A DNA stretch of 32,492 bases, taken from the sequence record SRR2962707_1907. The stretch is one strand, 5' to 3'. Positions 4,092 to 13,813 of this stretch are shown one piece after another (position 1 is the stretch's first letter; each line of letters begins with the position of its first letter). Made by a program: the position numbers and the translations under genes. Under the pieces are notes generated by a model. The model was not told the DNA's origin. It worked only from the letters and a program-made list of their open reading frames with translations, and did not search any database.

Positions 4092-5048
4092 ATGGCACTG
4101 CACCTTGTCCGCTTCCAACACCAGGACCAGCCCCGTTGGGGCCTGCTGGAAGGCACGACTATCAAGCCGCTGAATCTGCCCTGCACCACCACCGCCGCGC
4201 TGATTGAACAGAGCCATGAGGCGATCCGGGCGGCGGCCGGCGATGGCGCCGAGCTGGCGCTGGAGAGCGCCAGCCTGTTGTCACCGATCACCGGCGAGGC
4301 CAAGGTGCTCTGCCAGGGCGCCAATTATCGCCAGCACATGATCGACTCCGGCATGAACCCGGACGATAAAAGCTTCAACATGTTCTTCACCAAATCCCCG
4401 GCGTCGATCACCGGCCCCGCCGGCGAGATCGTCAAGCCCGCCCACGTGCAGCTGCTGGATTACGAGGTCGAACTGACCCTGGTGCTGGGCAAGCAAACAG
4501 ACGGGCCGGTGGAGGTCACCGCCAACAACCTGCACGACTTCGTGGCGGGCATCTGCATTGGCAACGACGTCTCCGCCCGGGACGTGCAGATTCCCCAGAT
4601 GCAGTTTCACAAGGGCAAGAGCTACCGCACCTTCTGCCCGCTGGGGCCGGTGCTGTGCCTGCTGGAAAAAAACGAGATGCACTACCTGGACGAGATGCAG
4701 CTGAAGCTGACGGTGAACGGCGAAACCCGGCAGCAGGACAGCACCGCGAACCTGGTGTTCAAACCGGCCGAGACCCTCAGCGAGTATTCCCTGATTCACG
4801 ATTTCGCCCCGGGCGACGTGCTGATGACGGGCACCCCCGCCGGCTGCGCCCTGGGCCTGCCCAGCCCGGCGGTGACCAAGGTGGCCGCCTTGCTGCCCGA
4901 ATCAAAAAAATGGCAGCTTTTCATTAAGTCACAAAAGCGCCGCCAGCAGTATCTTCAGGCCGGGGATGTGGTGGAATCCACCATCACCAGCCGCGATCAG
5001 CAGCTGGACCTGGGTAAGCAACGTCATACCATTAAAGACGGGGCCTGA
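4092..5048 (+). CDS. Fumarylacetoacetate hydrolase family protein
   Basis: GANY, LDYEVEL, NDVSARD, GKS...PLGP and GDVLMTGTPAG motifs. Confidence 0.92.
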   Translation: MALHLVRFQHQDQPRWGLLEGTTIKPLNLPCTTTAALIEQSHEAIRAAAGDGAELALESASLLSPITGEAKVLCQGANYRQHMIDSGMNPDDKSFNMFFTKSPASITGPAGEIVKPAHVQLLDYEVELTLVLGKQTDGPVEVTANNLHDFVAGICIGNDVSARDVQIPQMQFHKGKSYRTFCPLGPVLCLLEKNEMHYLDEMQLKLTVNGETRQQDSTANLVFKPAETLSEYSLIHDFAPGDVLMTGTPAGCALGLPSPAVTKVAALLPESKKWQLFIKSQKRRQQYLQAGDVVESTITSRDQQLDLGKQRHTIKDGA

Positions 5049-5099
5049 GCAGGCCCCGTTCACGGCCACCTCAGCACGCAGCGACCGCAAGGAGAAAAG

Positions 5100-6134
5100 A
5101 TGAAGGCTTTTACCATCGTCGATCAGAGCACCGGCACGCTGCGCCCCAACGAGATGCCAGCGCCGCCGGCCCCAGCCGAGGACCAGGTGCAGCTTGAGCT
5201 GATCGGCACCTCCATCAACCCCATCGATCCACTGGTGGCCAAGGGCTATGGCGCGCCGCTGCTCAACACCAAACGGCAAGTGCCCCTGATCCCGGGCCGG
5301 GACGCGGTGGCCCGGGTGGTCGAGGTGGGCAAAGGCGTCACCGACCTGCGGCCGGGGCAGCGCGTGCTGGTGGCCGCCTCGCCACGCACCGGCGGCACCT
5401 ATGCGGCGGTCTTTAATCTGCCAAGAAAATGCGTGGCGCCCATCGAGGACAGCCTCAGCGACGCCACCGCCGCCGGCCTGGGCTACGCCGGGCTCACCGC
5501 CCTGCAGGCGCTGGCCGCCGCCGGCCTCTCCGCCGACAACGCCCGGGGCAAGACCCTGTGCATCAACGGCGCCAGCGGCGGCGTGGGCTCCATCGCCCTG
5601 GTGGTGGCTCGGCGCTGGGGCGCGACCATCACCGCCGTCGCCTCCCAACGCAACCAGGACTGGGTACGGCGACTGGGCGCCGACCAGACCGTGGACTATC
5701 GGGACGCAGCGGCCATGGCCGCCATCGACGCGGACATCATCCTCAACTTCGCCGCCCCCGGCGATAACCACCGGCAAGACCCGCTGCTGGACCTCCTGCG
5801 CCGCCGCGACACCCCCGGCCGCGCCTACGTGAACACCACCAATCCGGTGCTCAGCTCGGTTACCGACAAGGGCGTGGTGGGCGGTCTTGCCACCAGCGGT
5901 GGGATCTACGCCAGGAAACGCCTGGCGGCACGCCGGGCGGGCATCCACTATCGCTGGGTGCTGTTCAAGGAAAACGCCGAACAATTGGCGTATCTGGCCA
6001 AGGTGTTCGCCGACCTGGGCACGCCGACCATCGTCAGCGACAGCTGGCCGCTTGATGCGCTGCCCGAGGCGTTCAACGATCCCAAGGGGCCGCCGTCTCC
6101 GGGGAAGGGGGTTTTTATGGTCAATGCGCCATGA
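5100..6134 (+). CDS. MDR-superfamily NAD(P)H-dependent oxidoreductase (quinone/enoyl reductase-like)
   Basis: SINPID, PGRD, GLTALQAL, INGASGGVG; no obvious catalytic Zn cysteine set; AAGGAG RBS. Confidence 0.85.
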   Translation: MKAFTIVDQSTGTLRPNEMPAPPAPAEDQVQLELIGTSINPIDPLVAKGYGAPLLNTKRQVPLIPGRDAVARVVEVGKGVTDLRPGQRVLVAASPRTGGTYAAVFNLPRKCVAPIEDSLSDATAAGLGYAGLTALQALAAAGLSADNARGKTLCINGASGGVGSIALVVARRWGATITAVASQRNQDWVRRLGADQTVDYRDAAAMAAIDADIILNFAAPGDNHRQDPLLDLLRRRDTPGRAYVNTTNPVLSSVTDKGVVGGLATSGGIYARKRLAARRAGIHYRWVLFKENAEQLAYLAKVFADLGTPTIVSDSWPLDALPEAFNDPKGPPSPGKGVFMVNAP

Positions 6135-6326
6135 GCCGGCTTGGTAACGCGGGGGAAAAAAATCAGCAGAGTGAGAGCGGTCAAACCTTACTCGTTGAGG
6201 CTGTGGTGACCGATTGCGCGCCGGACCTGCCGGCTGCCCCCCTGGCGAACTATCCGGATTTTCCGGATAACTGAATCCTCGGCCAGCTCCCCCTCTTTGA
6301 AGACGTTCTTCACTGTAATCAGCCAC

Positions 6327-6364
6327 ACTGACCATATTGACAGTACATCACACGAAGGTACACT
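6327..6364 (+). promoter_or_regulatory. Sigma70 promoter overlapped by a LexA (SOS) box
   Basis: TTGACA (6337-6342)-N16-TACACT (6359-6364). ACTG-ACCATATTGA-CAGT (6327-6344) fits CTG-N10-CAG and covers the -35. Confidence 0.7.
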
Positions 6365-6398
6365 TAGTTAAGGAGCCTAGAAACTCCAACAGGCGGGC

Positions 6399-6431
6399 AA
6401 AGCCGCACCCCGGAAGCATTGCGGCTTTTTT
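6399..6431 (+). terminator. Intrinsic terminator/attenuator in the symE leader
   Basis: AAAGCCGCA...TGCGGCTTTTTT stem with U tract, just after the first antisense target site. Confidence 0.65.
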
Positions 6432-6454
6432 GTGCCCGAAATCCGGGACGTAAT

Positions 6455-6536
6455 GGCCGGGAGGTCCGGCGAATACAACACCTGCTTGCAGGAAATAGTC
6501 GGAGCAGTACCTGTTGCTGTTTCTAGCCTCCCGACC
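6455..6536 (+). ncRNA. C4/CI-like (P1 C4, P4 CI type) antisense RNA
   Basis: Closing stem GGCCGGGAGG/CCTCCCGACC. Contains CCTGTTG (6510-6516) and GTTTCTAG (6519-6526), complementary to CTAGAAAC/CAACAGG upstream (6377-6393) and CTAGAAA/CAACAGG downstream (6553-6571). Confidence 0.7.
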
Positions 6537-6580
6537 GCCCTATTTACGCAACCTAGAAATTGCACAACAGGAGCAAGACC

Positions 6581-6781
6581 ATGAAACAACGCAAACTGAA
6601 AGTCCGCAAAGGCCACCGGGACTACACCCTGAAGAGCAAGCCTTGTAGCGGCAACCCGATTATTCCTTTTCTTCTTCTCAAAGGTACCTGGCTGGAACAG
6701 GCGGGATTCACCATTGATACGCCCCTGTCCGTGACCGTGGAGGATGGGCGGCTTTCCATTGTTCGGGATCGTTGTCGGTGA
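6581..6781 (+). CDS. symE: SymE-family type I toxin (66 aa)
   Basis: P-x-L-x-L-K-G-x-W-L-E-Q-A-G-F-x-I-x-x-P-L-x-V-x-V-E-x-G-x-L signature; CAGGAG RBS before ATG 6581. Confidence 0.85.
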   Translation: MKQRKLKVRKGHRDYTLKSKPCSGNPIIPFLLLKGTWLEQAGFTIDTPLSVTVEDGRLSIVRDRCR

Positions 6782-6861
6782 GGGGCTGGCCCCAGCTTTG
6801 CGCCGGGGCTTCTCGCGTCAGCGGGGTATGCAAAGGTAAGACCTAGCCCTCATTGCTTACA

Positions 6862-6936
6862 CTAGGATGCTTATATCTCGGCATTGCCCACCTCCTCTTG
6901 TTAGGAGAAGGTGTCCACTAAAGCGGGGGAACTACA
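6862..6936 (-). mobile_element. Truncated IS3-family left end (IRL plus first codons of orfA)
   Basis: Minus strand reads TGTAGTTCCCCCGCTTTAGTGGACACC (5'-TG, IS3-like IR), then a GAGGAGG RBS and ATG at 6884 (MPRYKHP), and the frame closes shortly after. It begins exactly where the attC left arm ends. Confidence 0.55.
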
Positions 6937-6962
6937 TTGTCCGGTGCAATGCATTGTTATGC
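6937..6962 (-). mobile_element. attC site of cassette 3, left arm only (truncated)
   Basis: Minus strand GCATAAC-AATGC-ATTGCACCGGACAA. The inverse core GCATAAC is the exact complement of the cassette-start core GTTATGC (10760-10754). No right arm follows. Confidence 0.7.
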
Positions 6963-6987
6963 CTTCTTGGCTGACATCTCGTGCAGA

Positions 6988-8931
6988 TCATGTGCTTTGC
7001 CACTCTTCTGGAACCAGGGCGGGCGGCTTTGTCCAAGGCCCTTCGACCAACGATTTTTGAAACCAATGGTCACGAAGGTTCGCATGCTCGGTGATGATCA
7101 GTTGGAACCCGGGAACCTCATCCTGAGTGAACTTTAGCAATAACTCGAACAGACGACGCACTGCATCTAGGTCGGCGTCAGCCTCCGTCTTCTGTATTGA
7201 TCCATCGGCGTCGTTATAGACCTGCTCAGATGGAAAATAGACCTGGGTAGGCTGATCGATCAGCAGGAATCGAGGAATTGGCCGGTTATTCTTTGCGGCG
7301 AAAAGATGTAGCGCAAGCAGTGCCGATAGGTGGTAGGCCAGATGATTTTCGCCGCCGCCAGTCCGCGCCATCGGAACTGGGCGGTCTGGGCGATCGAAAA
7401 TTATAGTCAACTGTGGCAGGTTTAACCGAGCGGGGTAAGGACTGAACTCGGCGTTGAACTGTTGGACATAACGTGACAGATTTACGGAGATAGTGTTGAG
7501 AATCGAGGCTAAGCGCTCGTTGCTGTCATCCGCGCCGATCTGGTCTTCAAGCTCCTGAACCTTGTTATTAAGACGACGATTCTGTGCTTCCAACCGAGCA
7601 AGTTCTTCGTTCGGCAGAAGCGTCTCCAGAAACAGGCTGATGCGACCTACCACGCGTGCTGCCGCATTATTACGGGAGCCCATTTGAGAAATGACCTCGT
7701 TAGCCGAGATCGCCGCAGATAGCTCTGCTTCCTTCTGCTTTATGGCGCCCGCTATCTCGTCCACTTTGCTCGTCAGTTCGGAAAGGTAGGATTCGAGCTT
7801 TGGACGCTGGCCGGTAGCGATGCGCAATTCACTGTCAAGCGACTTCAACTCGCCGAGCAAGGCTGCCGCGATTGGAGACTCCATCGCTAGGTTTCGCTCA
7901 CTGAACGGCCATTGCCATTCGCCGCTTTCTGGGTTTTTTGGCAAAGCCTTGATCGACGCCAGTCGATCCAATTGTTCGGCTGCCTCATTCTCGTAGCCAC
8001 CCGCCCGCTTGGCAAACTGTCGCGCCGCGTCGATCCTGGATTGGGTGTCGCGTCTATCCTGACGCAACTGACTTAGTTCTTCTTCCAAGAACGAAATCCG
8101 GCTGCCGTCGTCGTCGGGTATCATTTCGGGCTTCCACGACAGCGCGGACCTCAGCGTCTCAATGATCCCGGTTCCATCCGTGCCCTCCCCGCCTCTAATG
8201 ACACCGACGCTTCTGGCTTCCGAATAGAGGCCAATGGCTTGCTCGTGCGATGTGTCGATAGCATTGCGCGCCTGTTCCAGCTGCTTGCTGTTAATCCTAA
8301 GATCCCGCTGGGCGGTGCGTAGACGAGATTCCAGTTCATAGCGGTCGCCAGAAGAGACGCCGAGCAGGATCGGCAGAGTGTCGCGGATTGCCTGAGGCTG
8401 GTACGGCTCGTTCTGGCGATAGAAAAGCTGATCCTTGTTGGCTATCAGGCCTTGCTTCTGGAACAGATAGTAGAACGTGTGCTTGACGTTCGCGTCGTAA
8501 CTGTCGCGGCTGTGTTCAAGCTCAACATCTGTGCGGTTCTCGGGAATACCTAGCAGACGCGACAGCAATTCCACAACGCCATCGTCATCAACGTTGGCCA
8601 CCAAATCCTTGAAAGCAGGCGTCTGCAACTGAGTACCACGTCGGAGCATCGCCATGCTGCAACTGGCTCCTGCGCTAGGTGGGCTCGGCTTAGCCACTAA
8701 AACCTGCTCTTTCTCGAACTGATAGACCACGGCGAACCATGCCACTTTGTCGCGAATTACGCCTTCGGGAACATTGAATGAGGAGCGGCCCATGCAATAC
8801 TCAATGATCTCGGAGAGTGCGGACTTGCCGGTAGACGAGTGTCCGGTGATGACATTAAGCCCTTCGACCCTAAACCGCAGATCCCGGCGTTGACCATCGT
8901 GGCTGTAGATATGGATAGAGCTAATCTTCAT
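6988..8931 (-). CDS. lmuB: Lamassu/ABC-three-component SMC-like ATPase (LmuB, DUF3732-type), 647 aa
   Basis: Walker A ITGHSSTGKS, Q-loop FQKQ, long coiled coils, signature TGGGEN, Walker B FLLIDQP, ITEH. ATG 8931 overlaps the upstream stop (ATGA). Confidence 0.85.
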   Translation of the reverse strand: MKISSIHIYSHDGQRRDLRFRVEGLNVITGHSSTGKSALSEIIEYCMGRSSFNVPEGVIRDKVAWFAVVYQFEKEQVLVAKPSPPSAGASCSMAMLRRGTQLQTPAFKDLVANVDDDGVVELLSRLLGIPENRTDVELEHSRDSYDANVKHTFYYLFQKQGLIANKDQLFYRQNEPYQPQAIRDTLPILLGVSSGDRYELESRLRTAQRDLRINSKQLEQARNAIDTSHEQAIGLYSEARSVGVIRGGEGTDGTGIIETLRSALSWKPEMIPDDDGSRISFLEEELSQLRQDRRDTQSRIDAARQFAKRAGGYENEAAEQLDRLASIKALPKNPESGEWQWPFSERNLAMESPIAAALLGELKSLDSELRIATGQRPKLESYLSELTSKVDEIAGAIKQKEAELSAAISANEVISQMGSRNNAAARVVGRISLFLETLLPNEELARLEAQNRRLNNKVQELEDQIGADDSNERLASILNTISVNLSRYVQQFNAEFSPYPARLNLPQLTIIFDRPDRPVPMARTGGGENHLAYHLSALLALHLFAAKNNRPIPRFLLIDQPTQVYFPSEQVYNDADGSIQKTEADADLDAVRRLFELLLKFTQDEVPGFQLIITEHANLRDHWFQKSLVEGPWTKPPALVPEEWQST

Positions 8932-9416
8932 GGACGAATCCCAAAAGTCGTGTAAACGGTCACCGGATCGGAAATGCGTGCGAATTCCCGCCCCAAGATC
9001 CGTGCCGCTTTCTGGCAAGAAACGGTCTCGTCAGTTCCCCGCACGGTCTTGCGCACCTTGTTGGGCACGGTCTGAATGCGACCGTCATCCCCAACTAAAA
9101 TGCACCCCCGCTCCATGAGCAAACCGAAACCCTCGAATACATAGGGCAGCATCTGCGTCACTCGGTCAGCGAACCCCAGTGTAATCTGCTGATTCTTTTC
9201 CGTGATCTTGAGGAGATAACTACGCGGACTGCCTGCAAGGATTTCTCGTGAATCCTTGTGTAGGCACAATGGCAGCACCAGCAGAGAAAGAGAGAAAGGC
9301 ATCGCGCGTGTAGCTTGTTCCTCGTAACTAGAGAGGGCACGATACAGTACCAAACCGCAGAAGGCTGGGTTGAACAGATTCCGAATCTCGACAGGGCGCA
9401 GGTTCCATTGCTTCAC
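8928..9416 (-). CDS. lmuC: ABC-three-component middle component (LmuC)
   Basis: 162 aa with LFNPAF and LVLPL-x-LH-x-x-SR motifs. Lies between effector and ATPase and is translationally coupled on both sides (GTGA, ATGA). Confidence 0.8.
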   Translation of the reverse strand: MKQWNLRPVEIRNLFNPAFCGLVLYRALSSYEEQATRAMPFSLSLLVLPLCLHKDSREILAGSPRSYLLKITEKNQQITLGFADRVTQMLPYVFEGFGLLMERGCILVGDDGRIQTVPNKVRKTVRGTDETVSCQKAARILGREFARISDPVTVYTTFGIRP

Positions 9417-10636
9417 TGGGCCACTCCAAGCACTTTGCCAAGACGATCAAGAAATCTGGGGTGCCAGTAGACCCTAGGTTCGGGCGTGGCATCGGCCAAA
9501 ATATGGAAGCTTCCGCGGAGGACATAAGGCTCAGCAACCCGGGCGCGAATGCGTAAGGATTCGAGCTTTCCTGTCTCGAACTCCGCCCAGTTATAGAGGG
9601 TTGCGCCGGCTTCACGAAGCGCGTTCTCGGCGCTATCATCTGCCAACTTTTCGAAGACGACATCCTTATAGCGATTCCACTCGTCAGCAAGACGATCTTC
9701 GTATTCCTCAACTTCTCCTGACACCAGCAGGTTCTCGCGTGCCCAAGCGGATCGCTGCTCGAACGCGCGATAGTAATCTAGTACGGCGCTTCTGATCCGG
9801 CTGGAGGAGAGGCCGATCTCGCGGAGCTGCGCCACGAACAAGCGAGGATCGTCCTCAATATCAATCTCGCCTACGGGCTGTTTTCCCCGGAAAGTGATAG
9901 GAAGGTTGTCCGCTTTATATTCCTCGGCAAAGTTGGAGAGCTTGTCCGATACCTCGTAACCGAAAATTCCTTCCGGCCGTGCGTGTGTCAACTGCTTTAT
10001 CACGGCGTCAGTCCACCAGCCTTCCAGTCGCTCGAAAACGAACTCGCGGTGCTCACGCCGGATGCTTCGCATATGCTTATCCCTGATGATCGACGGGATA
10101 TCATCAATACGTGGGCTACCGTCTAGGATCAGAATACGTTCGAGAAAATCCTGCTTCTCTGGCTCACTCAGCTCATTGAACGACACAGCGATAGTCGCGA
10201 TGAGTTGCGACTTTGAATTGGCGAGCGAGGCATTCGCTAGCTCAGTTAGTGGCGCCAAATCGCTTGATGGGGCGGGCTGGTCAGGGAGAAGACGTGCGAG
10301 AAACGAGCCTGCACTCACGGTACCCGTAGTAAACAGGAAGAACTGCAGGCTCGATGCGGAACGACCATCACGCTTGTAACGCTCCAGCCAGATGTTCACC
10401 GACTTCCAAAAGTCCGTGGCCAGATCGGTCACCCTATCGCCGACCGCCTTATGCTTGAGTGATGCGAGGGATTTTCCGCCGTCACCGTCGATGAAATCTA
10501 GGTCGTCGTCCTTTTCCAAGAAGACGGCGGTCTCCTCCGATAATTGCAATATATGGAGCAGGGCGAGACGCGCCTGGTATATGTACCCCAAGCCTTGTTC
10601 GCTGGCTGAATATTTGTCGGTTTTTTTTGTCGTCAT
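9413..10636 (-). CDS. lmuA: Lamassu effector (LmuA): Cap4-like PD-(D/E)xK nuclease fused to an ABC-3C C-terminal domain
   Basis: N-terminal A-x-x-x-x-LGY-x-YQ, E-x-x-DD, SLKHK, DFWKS-x-x-IW; C-terminal RGSFHILAD...VYWHP typical of ABC-3C C-terminal domains. Confidence 0.78.
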   Translation of the reverse strand: MTTKKTDKYSASEQGLGYIYQARLALLHILQLSEETAVFLEKDDDLDFIDGDGGKSLASLKHKAVGDRVTDLATDFWKSVNIWLERYKRDGRSASSLQFFLFTTGTVSAGSFLARLLPDQPAPSSDLAPLTELANASLANSKSQLIATIAVSFNELSEPEKQDFLERILILDGSPRIDDIPSIIRDKHMRSIRREHREFVFERLEGWWTDAVIKQLTHARPEGIFGYEVSDKLSNFAEEYKADNLPITFRGKQPVGEIDIEDDPRLFVAQLREIGLSSSRIRSAVLDYYRAFEQRSAWARENLLVSGEVEEYEDRLADEWNRYKDVVFEKLADDSAENALREAGATLYNWAEFETGKLESLRIRARVAEPYVLRGSFHILADATPEPRVYWHPRFLDRLGKVLGVAQ

Positions 10637-10753
10637 TGGTTCAACCGATACCTAATTATATTTTCAGGGTCGCAGTCTACTCAGCGTCAAGGTCGGCGAC
10701 CATCCTTATAATGGCCTTGATCCATACTTCACTGGTTGCGACTACTTCCTGCG

Positions 10754-10837
10754 GCATAACGCCGCCAGCACGTGCGGCTTTGTAATGGAGGCTCAGCCGC
10801 AGTGAAAAAGCCGTCGCTGAGCCTGCGCTTGTTAAAA
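10754..10837 (-). mobile_element. attC site of cassette 2 (84 bp, apparently intact)
   Basis: Minus strand TTTTAAC-AAGCG-CAGGCTCAGCGACGGCTTT...AAAGCCGCACGTGCTG-GCGGC-GTTATGC: imperfect hairpin with extrahelical bases; the TAA of the upstream gene lies in the inverse core. Confidence 0.8.
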
Positions 10838-11329
10838 TATGGCGCCCGCCGCCGCACCTATTACCGATACAACAGCCGGGTGCCCCAGCAATTTACGGAG
10901 CATGCCTTTAGCCTCTTCTTTCTGCGCAGCAGGAAGGTCAGCAGAGTCAATCCTCTTTACCAGCGCTTCAAAAGAATTCACGATATTTTGGGTATTGTAG
11001 TCACCGACTTGTACTGACTGCGCGCCATGAATATTGATGGTATGACCCGGCTTCTGCATCTCTGACTGCCCACCCTTACGGTATTTAATCTGGTAATGCG
11101 GCCCCATTCCGGCCACGCCTCGTTTGTAAAAGGTAGCCTCTGTCACGATGCAGCGCTCATCTTTGCCACTGGGAAGCTCACGAAGAATGACATCGCCCTC
11201 TTCTACATCTGCCTTCTCATCAAGCAGGAAAATCGTTTGACCGGGGAACGAGGCTTTGTATGGGCCGAGAATCGACCCGTCTTTCTTCTCAATCCTTGCT
11301 TCATCCTCGAACTTTTTCAGGAGCCTCAT
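10832..11329 (-). CDS. Hypothetical cassette protein with RHIM-like motif (165 aa)
   Basis: AAGGA RBS; the ORF fills the cassette; contains INIHGAQSVQVGDYNTQNI. Confidence 0.8.
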   Translation of the reverse strand: MRLLKKFEDEARIEKKDGSILGPYKASFPGQTIFLLDEKADVEEGDVILRELPSGKDERCIVTEATFYKRGVAGMGPHYQIKYRKGGQSEMQKPGHTINIHGAQSVQVGDYNTQNIVNSFEALVKRIDSADLPAAQKEEAKGMLRKLLGHPAVVSVIGAAAGAIF

Positions 11330-11338
11330 AGTTTTTCC

Positions 11339-11390
11339 TTTTAACGCCCGCCTAAGCCGCCGAAGGTCGGCCTGGAGGTGCTTTTCATGT
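11339..11390 (-). mobile_element. attC site of cassette 1 (52 bp, degenerate inverse core)
   Basis: Minus strand ACATGAA-AAGCACCTCCAGGCCGACCTTCGGCGGCTTAGGCGGGC-GTTAAAA, resembling short aadA/aadB-type attC arms. The inverse core ACATGAA differs at 2 nt from the expected ACATAAC. Confidence 0.72.
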
Positions 11391-11978
11391 AGATTTTGCG
11401 GGGCGATCCCACATGTGGCTTACAGCAGACAGCTGCCCCGGTTCTTGCAAGTCCTCAACGGAAAGCCCCTTCACAAAATATCTATCCGTAAGTTCTCGAA
11501 TAGTCTCGAGACGCTCGCCAGGGTTAATTATCTCGTATACGACCGACGTAAATAAGCGCTGCAGCTGTTCCGCTTTCTCATTCAGGCTCGAACTGCTTGG
11601 CTTGTGGTGAAGATTGTATGATGCCACAAGGAAGTCTAACCCTATATTCCTGTACCCTCGATAGGCGGGCGGCTTATCTACCCCATGCTCACCGGGATTG
11701 ATATTTGGAAAGAAAAATCTTCCCTTTTCGATGTATGCGGAGAGCTCGATCAGCAAAGACTGCCTTTCATCCTCATACCCAGAAAATTGTCTAAGTCTCA
11801 GCTCAGTAAGAATTTCGATGACCGAATGATGCCACTGCAAGAGCTGATTAATGTAATCATTGGCAATAGTGAACTTGACGTGACGCCTGTCTCTTACATA
11901 AAGGACAGCCAAAATTCCAGAAATCACCAAAGATACGCATGCTAGCAAATTCGAAAACTGATCTGACCCTATATCCAT
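11385..11978 (-). CDS. Hypothetical cassette protein with an N-terminal transmembrane helix (197 aa)
   Basis: Hydrophobic LLACVSLVISGILAVLYV followed by basic RDRRH; GAGAGGGGG RBS; AT-rich; the stop lies in the attC inverse core. Confidence 0.8.
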   Translation of the reverse strand: MDIGSDQFSNLLACVSLVISGILAVLYVRDRRHVKFTIANDYINQLLQWHHSVIEILTELRLRQFSGYEDERQSLLIELSAYIEKGRFFFPNINPGEHGVDKPPAYRGYRNIGLDFLVASYNLHHKPSSSSLNEKAEQLQRLFTSVVYEIINPGERLETIRELTDRYFVKGLSVEDLQEPGQLSAVSHMWDRPAKST

Positions 11979-12003
11979 AGCCCCCTCTCACCTTCCTTGA
12001 TCT

Positions 12004-12022
12004 ACATAACAGGAATTAGGAC
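12004..12022 (-). mobile_element. Putative attI-like simple site heading the cassette array
   Basis: Minus strand GTCCTAA-TTCCT-GTTATGT; a core site with no attC hairpin upstream; layout resembles attI1 (CCCTAAA-ACAAA-GTT). Confidence 0.5.
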
Positions 12023-12174
12023 GCCAGCTCGAATATCCAATGAACGCGCCGGCGTCATATCCCTTCTTTTGGCTCCCCATGACTTGAAATAAAACCAGAA
12101 AACTCAGCCGCTTACAAACTCCGCCGCACGCAGCATTCTGATATCTTGACCAACCATATCGTGCCCAGAACACA

Positions 12175-12210
12175 AAAAGGCCGCCGACGCTCCCGCGCCG
12201 GCGGCCTTTT
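12175..12210 (-). terminator. Rho-independent terminator of guaA (bidirectional form)
   Basis: AAAAGGCCGCCG-N12-CGGCGGCCTTTT, 31 bp after the guaA stop. Confidence 0.85.
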
Positions 12211-12241
12211 AAGTAAGCCCTTACTTTCAGGCTAGATCAGA

Positions 12242-13813
12242 TCATTCCCATTCAATCGTAGCCGGCGGCTTGGACGAGATGTCGTAGGTCACCCGGCTAA
12301 TTCCGGGAATCTCATTAATGATCCGGCTGGAGACCTTCTCCAGAAACTCATAGGGCAGGTGCGCCCAACGCGCGGTCATGAAGTCGATGGTCTCGACGGC
12401 GCGCAGGGCCACGACGTATTCGTAGCGGCGGGCGTCGCCGACGACGCCGACGGATTTGACCGGGAGGAAGACGGCGAAGGCCTGGCTGGTTTTGTGGTAG
12501 AGGCCGGCGGCTTTGAGTTCTTCGATAAAGATGTGGTCCGCCAGGCGCAGGGTATCAGCGTATTCTTTCTTTACTTCGCCGAGGATGCGCACGCCCAGGC
12601 CGGGGCCGGGGAAGGGGTGGCGGTAGACCATGTCGTAGGGCAGGCCAAGTTCCAGTCCAATCTTGCGCACTTCATCTTTGAACAGTTCGCGCAGGGGCTC
12701 GACGAGCTTGAGCTTCATGTCTTCGGGGAGGCCGCCCACGTTGTGGTGGGATTTGATCACGTGGGCGCCACCGGTTTTGGAGGCGGCGGATTCGATCACG
12801 TCCGGGTAGATGGTGCCCTGGGCCAGCCAGTTGGCGTTGGTGAGTTTGCCGGCTTCGGTGTCGAAGATGTCGATGAAGGTGTTGCCGATGATTTTGCGTT
12901 TCTTCTCCGGATCGGCTTCGCCGGCCAGGCGGGAGAGGAAGTGGTCTTCGGCGTCGACGCGGATGACGCGCACGCCCATGTGGTCGGCGAACATTTCCAT
13001 CACCTGGTCGCCTTCCTGGTGGCGCAGCAGGCCGTTGTCGACGAACACACAGGTGAGCTGGTCGCCGATCGCCTTATGGAGTAGCGCGGCGACCACGGAG
13101 GAGTCAACACCACCGGAGAGGCCGAGGATGACGTCGTCGGTGCCGACCTGTTCTTTGATGGTGGTGATGGCGTCTTCGATGATGTTGGCCGGGGTCCACA
13201 GGGCTTCACAGCCGCACAGTTCGCGGATGAAGCGTTCCAGCAGGCGGCCGCCTTGCAGGGTGTGGGTGACTTCCGGGTGGAACTGGACGCCGTAGAAGCG
13301 TTTTTCGTCATTGGCCATGCCGGCGATGGGGCAGCTGTCGGTGGTGGCGGTGACGACGAAGTCTTCCGGTACCGCGCCGACGCGGTCACCGTGGCTCATC
13401 CACACGTCGAGGTATTCCTGGCCGCCTTCTTCGTGGTCGACGATGCCGTCCAGCAGGGCGTTGCTTTCGGCTTTGGCGACGCGGGCGTAGCCGAATTCGT
13501 GTTTTTCACCGGCCACCACGGCGCCGCCCAGTTGCTCGGCCATGGTTTGCATGCCGTAGCAGATGCCCAGCACCGGCACGCCCAGTTCGAACACCGCTTG
13601 CGGCGCGCGCGGGGTTTCGGCGGCGGTGACGGATTCCGGGCCGCCGGAGAGGATGATGCCTTTGGGGTTGAATTCGGCGATGTCCTCGGCGCTGATGTCG
13701 AAGGCGCGGATTTCGCAGTAGACGCCGATTTCGCGCACGCGGCGGGCGATCAGTTGGGTGTACTGGGAGCCGAAGTCGAGGATCAGGAGGCGCTGGGCAT
13801 GGATGTCTTGCAT
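12242..13813 (-). CDS. guaA: GMP synthase (glutamine-hydrolysing)
   Basis: [46 protein letters not shown]. Confidence 0.99.

Follow-up and report, generated by a model that had tools for sequence, protein, structure and literature searches.

A three-gene Lamassu system as a probable integron cassette in an integrase-less array downstream of guaA

Can a three-gene defence system of normal length move as a single integron cassette? The question is raised by a Lamassu operon in sequence record SRR2962707_1907, of which a stretch of 32,492 nucleotides (nt) was analysed (hereafter, the window). The window is mostly core chromosome with a G+C content of 60–72%, and the host chromosome is Halomonadaceae-like. 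The operon lies in an island of lower G+C content (about 6140–12240; 47–57% compared with 62–72% in the flanks). A preliminary description, made from the letters of the window alone, had proposed that lmuA, lmuC and lmuB are packaged together between integron recombination sites. We put at about 85% the probability that positions 6937–10759 (minus strand) are an integron cassette with a whole type II Lamassu, third in an integrase-less array downstream of guaA, which was formerly mobile and is now fixed. Such a cassette would start where the preceding attC site is crossed over, at G|TT, and would once have ended in a short attC of its own.

The Lamassu operon and its boundaries

The three genes are co-directional on the minus strand, in the order lmuA, lmuC, lmuB. 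Their products match the PADLOC profiles for LmuA, LmuC and LmuB, in agreement with the initial assignment. Briefly, lmuA (9413–10636) encodes a Cap4-type PD-(D/E)xK nuclease effector with an ABC-3C CTD7 domain (PADLOC LmuA, 1e-70; Pfam CTD7, 8.7e-41). The product of lmuC (8928–9416) is the ABC-3C middle component MC3 (Pfam MC3, 7.9e-51; PADLOC LmuC, 1.7e-14), and that of lmuB (6988–8931) is an SMC/Rad50-like ATPase with DUF3732 (PADLOC LmuB, 1.9e-131; Pfam DUF3732, 2.1e-50). The translational coupling suggested earlier is borne out by stop-start overlaps, GTGA between lmuA and lmuC (9416–9413) and ATGA between lmuC and lmuB (8931–8928). Because of the ATGA overlap, we take the true start of lmuB to be the ATG at 8931 (647 amino acids) and not the TTG at 9018. 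A scan for sigma-70 promoters returned none that was convincing ahead of lmuA.

LmuB has the Walker A motif GxxxxGKS and aligns over its full length with the LmuB chain 9hqu_A of the PDB (3.2e-49). LmuA matches the LmuA chains of 9nxx and 9hqu by sequence. A Pfam search with its N-terminal domain alone found no family. All 21 sequences compared share residues E41, D44, D45 and K61. When LmuA was modelled with AlphaFold on 21 homologues, the result had a mean predicted local distance difference test (pLDDT) score of 63.8; residues 18–241 were modelled confidently and the C-terminal part was not. The best Foldseek matches of the model were Salmonella LmuA (9hr5), Vibrio cholerae type II LmuA, 9nxx and Cap4 (6vm5); in the Foldseek alignments, the solved LmuA chains share only 14–18% of residues with it. 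The fold matches to Salmonella and V. cholerae LmuA and to Cap4 therefore point to type II Lamassu with a Cap4-type nuclease. Together, sequence and model identify the system as a complete type II (Cap4-nuclease) Lamassu.

The solved Lamassu of Salmonella enterica and DdmABC of V. cholerae (PDB 9hqu, 9hqx, 9hr5, 9nxx, 9ny5, 9uxl; PMC12663957) have the same three components in the same order. The likeness extends to the full-length alignment of LmuB and to the fold of LmuA, a Cap4-type nuclease followed by a C-terminal domain. A sensing-and-release mechanism has been described for the solved complexes (PMC12663957). By homology, the SMC-like LmuB/LmuC module would sense phage or plasmid DNA ends and release LmuA. 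Released LmuA would oligomerise into an active DNA nuclease, and this activity would abort infection or eliminate plasmids.

We next consider the proposed ends, which had been given as GTTATGC about 120 bp before lmuA and its exact complement 25 bp after lmuB. Both are present. On the minus strand, GTTATGC lies at 10760–10754, 124 nt upstream of the lmuA ATG, and GCATAAC lies at 6962–6956, 25 nt past the lmuB stop. The former is the R' of an A2-family attC that belongs to the preceding cassette (10754–10837, minus; R'' TTTTAAC at 10837–10831), and the Lamassu cassette begins after its G. The latter is the R'' of the cassette's own attC. R'' and the first bases of the cassette are complementary at 7/7 positions, as expected of a unit passing through a circular form. 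The attC left arm that had been noted after lmuB comprises R'' and L'' (6937–6962, minus); L' and R' are absent. As retained, the cassette spans 6937–10759 (minus; 3,823 nt); it opens with TTATGC and breaks off in the loop of the attC that belongs to it. With only half an attC, this copy cannot be excised as it stands.

Recurrence of the unit in other loci

A scan of one genome per species yielded 80 loci encoding relatives of LmuB. In blastn comparisons, 79 of these match the window only in coding DNA (about 6999–10621; 64–82% identity). The sole locus matching beyond coding DNA is that of Vreelandella zhaodongensis (L035), which aligns with window positions 6937–10762 at 93% nucleotide identity and encodes an LmuB with 94% amino acid identity to that of the window. 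The matching stretch occupies 10082–6256 of L035 and similarity stops at both borders. Upstream, it starts 2 nt before GTTATGC; further upstream, the two loci hold unrelated cassettes with different attCs. Downstream, it runs through GCATAAC and some 20 nt more, and GGACAA is the last stretch that can be aligned with the intact L035 attC. Single-strand folds of both sites gave weak z-scores (−0.6 to −1.6) and were uninformative. In V. zhaodongensis, the Lamassu unit ends in a complete 48-nt attC with a 3' arm and the R' GTTATAG. Small cassettes lie further downstream, including a Phd/YefM-like pair, each closed by an A2-type attC. The same unit is found in different array contexts, with different neighbours on both sides. 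Hence, the closest homologue shares both ends and lies between attCs in another array; similarity does not run on past the ends. Judged from the two sequences, the upstream junction, exactly at the G|TT of differing attCs, appears to be the footprint of past site-specific insertion.

The 5' end recurs more widely. Allowing at most one substitution, 14 of 78 loci have GTTATGCCGC in the 260 nt that precede lmuA, where a background of 94 matches in 2.40 Mb predicts about 0.8. In seven loci the match is exact and lies at −121 to −134 (L035, L037, L046, L063, L072, L081 and L111); here, conservation starts at the motif and the DNA upstream is unrelated. Loci in which similarity starts at GTTATGC include Nitrospira, Gemmatimonadales, Desulfurivibrio and Burkholderiales.

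For the 3' end, 170 nt past the lmuB stop were read by eye in 79 loci. A related attC follows lmuB, in gene direction, in 13 of them. Ten have a full R''...R' (L035, L037, L042, L046, L050, L081, L092, L102, L103 and L113), and in three R' is degenerate or absent (L067, L078 and L095). Among the source taxa are Nitrospira, Limnobacter, Thauera, Franzmannia, Desulfurivibrio, Melioribacteraceae, Planctomycetota and Bryobacterales. R' varies between loci after GTTA, as a crossover at G|TT would predict. R'' is complementary to the unit's own first bases at 7/7 positions in L037 and L081, and at 6/7 in L035 and L046. Intact cassettes measure 3,840 bp (L035), 3,855 bp (L037), 3,915 bp (L081) and 3,939 bp (L046). 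None of the outcomes named as refuting the original proposal was observed: the proteins match the profiles, similarity to the closest homologue stops at the proposed ends, and the 5' end recurs with a cognate 3' attC in distant loci. Since the same 3.84–3.94 kb unit has the same ends in distant lineages, it must have moved as a unit. That IntI, the integron integrase, moved it is what we infer from the anatomy of the ends.

A covariance model, R1, was built from six of the Lamassu attC sites. Run with default filters on 81 sources, R1 matched 13 sites at E<=1. Every one lies on the Lamassu strand, and six were the seeds. The non-seed site in L081 scored 21.7 bits; with filters off, a search of six loci also recovered L035 (19.4 bits) and L046 (11.9 bits). 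A weak match inside lmuB of L088 is probably false. A scan for AAC...GTT pairs with constrained DNA folding found attCs and also terminators and coding hairpins; it was not used for counts.

Two side observations concern the 5' end. First, about 40 nt after GTTATGC are conserved across phyla, though non-coding (window 10640–10759; leaders of L037, L063, L072 and L111). This conserved leader may be regulatory or may be part of the recombination site of the circular form. Second, GCTATGCCGC lies 47–48 nt before lmuA in L040, L041, L044, L045 and L110 (Rhodanobacter and Lysobacteraceae), where there is no attC. It resembles the 5' end of a cassette in decay, so that cassettes may be the ancestors of some copies now outside them.

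Several observations weigh against the cassette reading. The GTTATGC 7-mer is at chance level in the window (2 occurrences compared with 2.42 expected; at least 2 in 69 of 100 shuffles). We regard the two 7-mers as true ends because of the comparison with other genomes, not because of the motif count. The window's own Lamassu attC is incomplete and scores 7.6 bits with R1 (E=1). In alignment A8, which comprises all 13 default-filter matches of R1, including weak ones that are likely false (e.g. L088), double changes occur in 13 of 18 pairs, and the paired share of cells is 86%, compared with 28–38% when the partner is slid. These figures speak for an attC structure but as supporting evidence only; they lean towards structure because R1 derives from the same attC family and A8 was fitted to R1. 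The bulged base in L'' is a G on the coding-strand arm; classical attCs generally carry a C at this base. About 65 of the 79 homologous operons show no attC, and most of this Lamassu clade is therefore not in cassettes now. A search of plasmids found similarity in the coding region only (64–73%).

The remaining points of this kind concern the integrase. Searching with IntI by tblastn, we found none in the 32-kb window and no intact intI within 8 kb of the 80 homologues; only five loci gave matches, at 26–35% identity. IntI scored above the family cut-off in 17 of the 41 relatives with which the window was compared, but in 1 of 19 genomes of the genus, with fragments in three more. In the nearest genome, no IntI passed the cut-off. 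Linkage between intI and Lamassu was absent from the six genomes searched for it; in three, intI or a fragment is on another contig. In V. zhaodongensis, an intI pseudogene lies about 100 kb from Lamassu. A pattern scan of metagenomes added a single locus, similar to L037 (the Nitrospira type) and without IntI.

Array context and alternative explanations

On the minus strand, the array reads: attI-like site, ORF197 (ORF, open reading frame), degenerate attC, ORF165, attC, Lamassu, half attC, symE/sRNA-Xcc1. It starts in a repeat, R, that combines the guaA terminator with the attI-like site (12004–12256, minus) and ends in GTTATGT at 12010–12004; a terminator-like hairpin lies at 12210–12175. 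guaA abuts this attI-like repeat, and there is no integrase gene beside the site. Window positions 12007–12127 are 78–80% identical, over 113–124 nt, to DNA that, in three relatives (L021, L029 and L030), separates an intI fragment from the cassette that comes first. In the relatives with such intI-proximal DNA (G004, G011 and G002), the GTTRRRY end points away from intI. All intI genes beside R-like DNA are fragments. The A2 attC aligns with seven other sites in relatives, and all eight have RYYYAAC and GTTRRRY ends. One relative (G021) has copies spaced by about 1 kb. A copy in V. zhaodongensis (L115) adjoins attI and the N-terminal remnant of an intI, which are arranged divergently as in canonical integrons. 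Together, the attI-like site and the orientation of the intI fragments set the array direction as the minus strand.

R itself (about 250 nt, window 12007–12256) also occurs four times on contig C14 of one relative (G018), as direct copies with 7–8 kb spacing (L018, 9215–9433 and 17006–17225; L019, 3792–4009 and 11899–12150). Multiple attI-like sites in one array are unexpected of an integron.

The 3' half of the Lamassu attC, cut in its loop, is replaced by the left-end remnant of an IS3-family insertion sequence (IS), which is joined to DNA 3' of symE. The remnant (6862–6936, minus; about 75 nt) retains the left inverted repeat, a ribosome-binding site and the first OrfA codons. Its 27-nt core (6910–6936) has 11 copies in 7 of the 41 relatives. 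A GTTA/TAAC core lies 17–33 nt beyond the IS tip, in constant orientation, in 11 of 12 copies (the window and 10 of the 11 in relatives), and the half-attC arms joined to the IS left end differ from copy to copy. In L118 (896–2195) and L124 (1501–2795), the IS core is followed by OrfA (HTH_Tnp_1), OrfB (rve, HTH_21) and a matching end inverted repeat. We assign the element to the IS3 family because of OrfA, OrfB and the inverted repeats in these full copies. The same two genes rule out the 27-nt core as a miniature inverted-repeat transposable element, an IS1111-attC element or a chimeric attC. In L124 the whole IS sits between R'' ACATAAC and R' GTTATGT of one attC. In another relative (G008), an intact attC without the IS stands ahead of this guaA-side symE cassette. 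The element appears to target attC loops. A full-text literature search found no description of an attC-specific IS3-family element.

On the simplest history, the element first inserted into the Lamassu attC, in its loop, and a deletion then took out most of the IS together with L' to R' of that attC and the beginning of the symE cassette, presumably in this order. Because of the insertion and deletion, the Lamassu copy would now be fixed in the genome. Separately, L127 (G023:C13:525.7-525.9k) holds an inverted pair of IS cores 16 nt apart within a palindrome of about 70 nt, which may be the footprint of an excision or a miniature form of the element.

The alternative that survives best accepts the cassette origin but not the route. 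The unit may have arrived by homologous recombination or natural transformation across array elements, or by means of the IS3-family element. There is no IntI at hand, and of 19 genomes of the genus just 1 yielded a complete intI. Conserved flanks (R, the A2 attCs and the symE cassette) give homology for exchange, and transformation-driven shuffling of cassettes has been published (PMC12614218). The IS, for its part, causes adjacent deletions in relatives (L118). Recombination across shared flanks sits poorly, however, with an upstream junction at the G|TT of an attC unlike that in V. zhaodongensis, and movement by the IS with the presence of one IS end only, outside the shared unit. We consider this route unlikely.

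A second alternative is an ordinary defence island without integrase at a guaA hot spot, in which the 7-mers form an inverted repeat by chance and no cassette ever existed. Such an island would account for a 7-mer count equal to chance expectation, for a window without IntI and for the lack of attC in most homologous operons. The guaA-side repeats, which carry the guaA terminator and are found four times in G018:C14, could likewise mark tandem island integration. It does not account for similarity borders in L035 that fall exactly on the motifs, for a 5' end conserved across phyla in 14 of 78 loci (about 0.8 expected), for a structured attC with compensatory changes after lmuB in 13 of 79 loci, or for flanking elements that stand beside intI fragments in canonical orientation. 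On these sequence comparisons, an ordinary island seems largely refuted and is very improbable.

Finally, an array on the plus strand, with Lamassu as antisense cargo like symE and GTTATGC at 6956–6962 (plus) as R' of the symE attC, can be rejected as next to impossible: symE and sRNA-Xcc1 are indeed on the plus strand, and the A3 repeat family ends in GTTA-type motifs on that strand, where similarity stops, but the conserved part of A3 is the IS3 left end and not an attC, symE is reversed in known arrays (PMC12444791), the attI-like site and intI fragments set the direction as minus, the ORF165 stop codon lies in the minus-strand R'', and an intact attC follows lmuB in gene direction in L035 and nine other loci.

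Known systems and neighbouring genes

How does the cassette compare with defence cassettes already described? Reports from 2024–2025 describe defence systems in integron cassettes as small and streamlined. Darracq et al. (10.1101/2024.07.02.601686), working on RefSeq complete genomes, state that cassette defence systems are streamlined and never exceed two components. The sedentary chromosomal integrons in that report store anti-phage systems beside toxin-antitoxin cassettes, as does the array here; unlike those cassettes, the present one has three components of normal length. The only Lamassu-like cassette that we found in print, brc128 (gcu128), has two ORFs and comes from mobile integrons (Kieffer et al., 10.1101/2024.07.02.601719). 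It also holds a Lamassu-related defence in one integron cassette. However, brc128 is type 1-like, has no Walker B motif and is carried by plasmid-borne mobile integrons, whereas the unit described here has three full-size genes in 3.8 kb and lies in a chromosomal, integrase-less array.

The unusual size claimed for the cassette holds up, since intact copies measure 3,840–3,939 bp and carry three genes against a published limit of two components. A full-text literature search found no report of a three-gene Lamassu cassette, although supplementary tables, which lie outside such a search, might list one. Defence cassettes in integrons are already known; this one, with three lmuACB genes of normal length, exceeds the two-component limit.

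We lean, with modest confidence, towards a wider interpretation. A three-component SMC-type defence would be an old, phylum-spanning integron cassette of 3.8–3.9 kb, with a conserved leader and a co-evolving attC. Integrons would then be a real route for Lamassu, the two-component ceiling would be a limit of sampling or detection, and the attC-loop IS3 element could strand such cassettes. The occurrence of normal-length lmuACB as a cassette of about 3.85 kb in Proteobacteria, Nitrospirota, Gemmatimonadota, Desulfobacterota, Planctomycetota and Bacteroidota-related metagenome-assembled genomes widens the cargo of integrons. It also offers a natural substrate for probing the size limits of IntI recombination. 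The length suggests that distance cut-offs used to cluster attCs may hide large cassettes; the default attC distance of IntegronFinder is 4 kb. The IS3 remnant, in turn, would represent one route by which cassettes become permanent chromosomal genes.

DdmABC belongs to a Vibrio pathogenicity island and is not known from the superintegron. The Lamassu of the window differs in being, most probably, an integron cassette. What Cury and colleagues reportedly named CALIN in 2016 are clusters of attC sites lacking integron integrases. The present array is similar, with attC-bounded cassettes and no intI within reach. It differs in having an attI-like site at its head, and only one of its three attCs in the window is neither truncated nor degenerate.

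IS1397 and ISKpn1 insert in the loops of repetitive extragenic palindromic (REP) sequences. Elements that target attC include the IS1111-attC group (PMC11187229) and group IIC-attC introns (PMC3001079). Like all of these, the element here shows orientation-specific insertion into a folded site; it is of the IS3 family and is neither a DEDD IS1111 element nor an intron.

The last array unit is the symE/sRNA-Xcc1 cassette, the 5' end of which is deleted. The symE-like type I toxin gene (6560–6781, plus) is antisense to the array (Pfam SymE_toxin, 7e-13; NCBIfam SymE, 6.5e-5, below the cut-off). Upstream of it lies an sRNA-Xcc1-like RNA (6455–6544, plus; Rfam RF02221, 52 bits, E 3.3e-8). Rfam at gathering thresholds and ARAGORN found no RNA family and no tRNA gene in the window; a default Rfam scan misses sRNA-Xcc1 because 52 bits is just under the gathering score of 53. 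A symE/sRNA-Xcc1 cassette, and its reverse orientation, are known from integrons of Xanthomonas (PMC12444791). The gene pair, the reverse orientation and the presence of multiple copies per genome are shared, the symE module having several copies per genome in relatives. The module here differs in being the terminal unit in a Halomonadaceae-like chromosome, with its 5' end deleted.

The other two cassettes precede Lamassu. ORF197 (11385–11978, minus; 197 amino acids) matches no Pfam, NCBIfam or PADLOC family and falls in hypothetical clusters only in the ESM Atlas. It is followed by the 3' end of a degenerate attC, GTTAAAA at 11345–11339. ORF165 (10832–11329, minus; 165 amino acids) has its stop codon inside the R'' of the next attC, and a stretch homologous to this cassette adjoins guaA in one relative (G009). 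The ORF165 protein belongs to an Atlas cluster of 767, of which 17% have a weak match to the RHIM motif; the window protein matches Pfam RHIM at 0.0072, below the cut-off.

To the right of the island lie guaA (12242–13813, minus) and then guaB, xseA, der, hisS and ispG. To the left are aromatic-catabolism genes and a quinone-oxidoreductase-like gene (5100–6134, plus). A 468-amino-acid ORF at 4929–6335 (minus) is a shadow frame opposite the oxidoreductase gene and has no family match. A search for repeats within the island found no meaningful family. The content of the guaA locus differs among the 41 relatives, and none of the matches listed from them, that is all but the 19 weakest, covers the Lamassu genes. 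In G018:C14, the array (L018, 12467–17108) holds an E2/multiubiquitin gene, a pair encoding a helix-turn-helix protein and an IrrE-like peptidase, and a gene for a 607-amino-acid AAA_15/SMC_N ATPase. Downstream of the ATPase gene, a half attC adjoins an IS end. The genes of this array represent further defence-like cargo.

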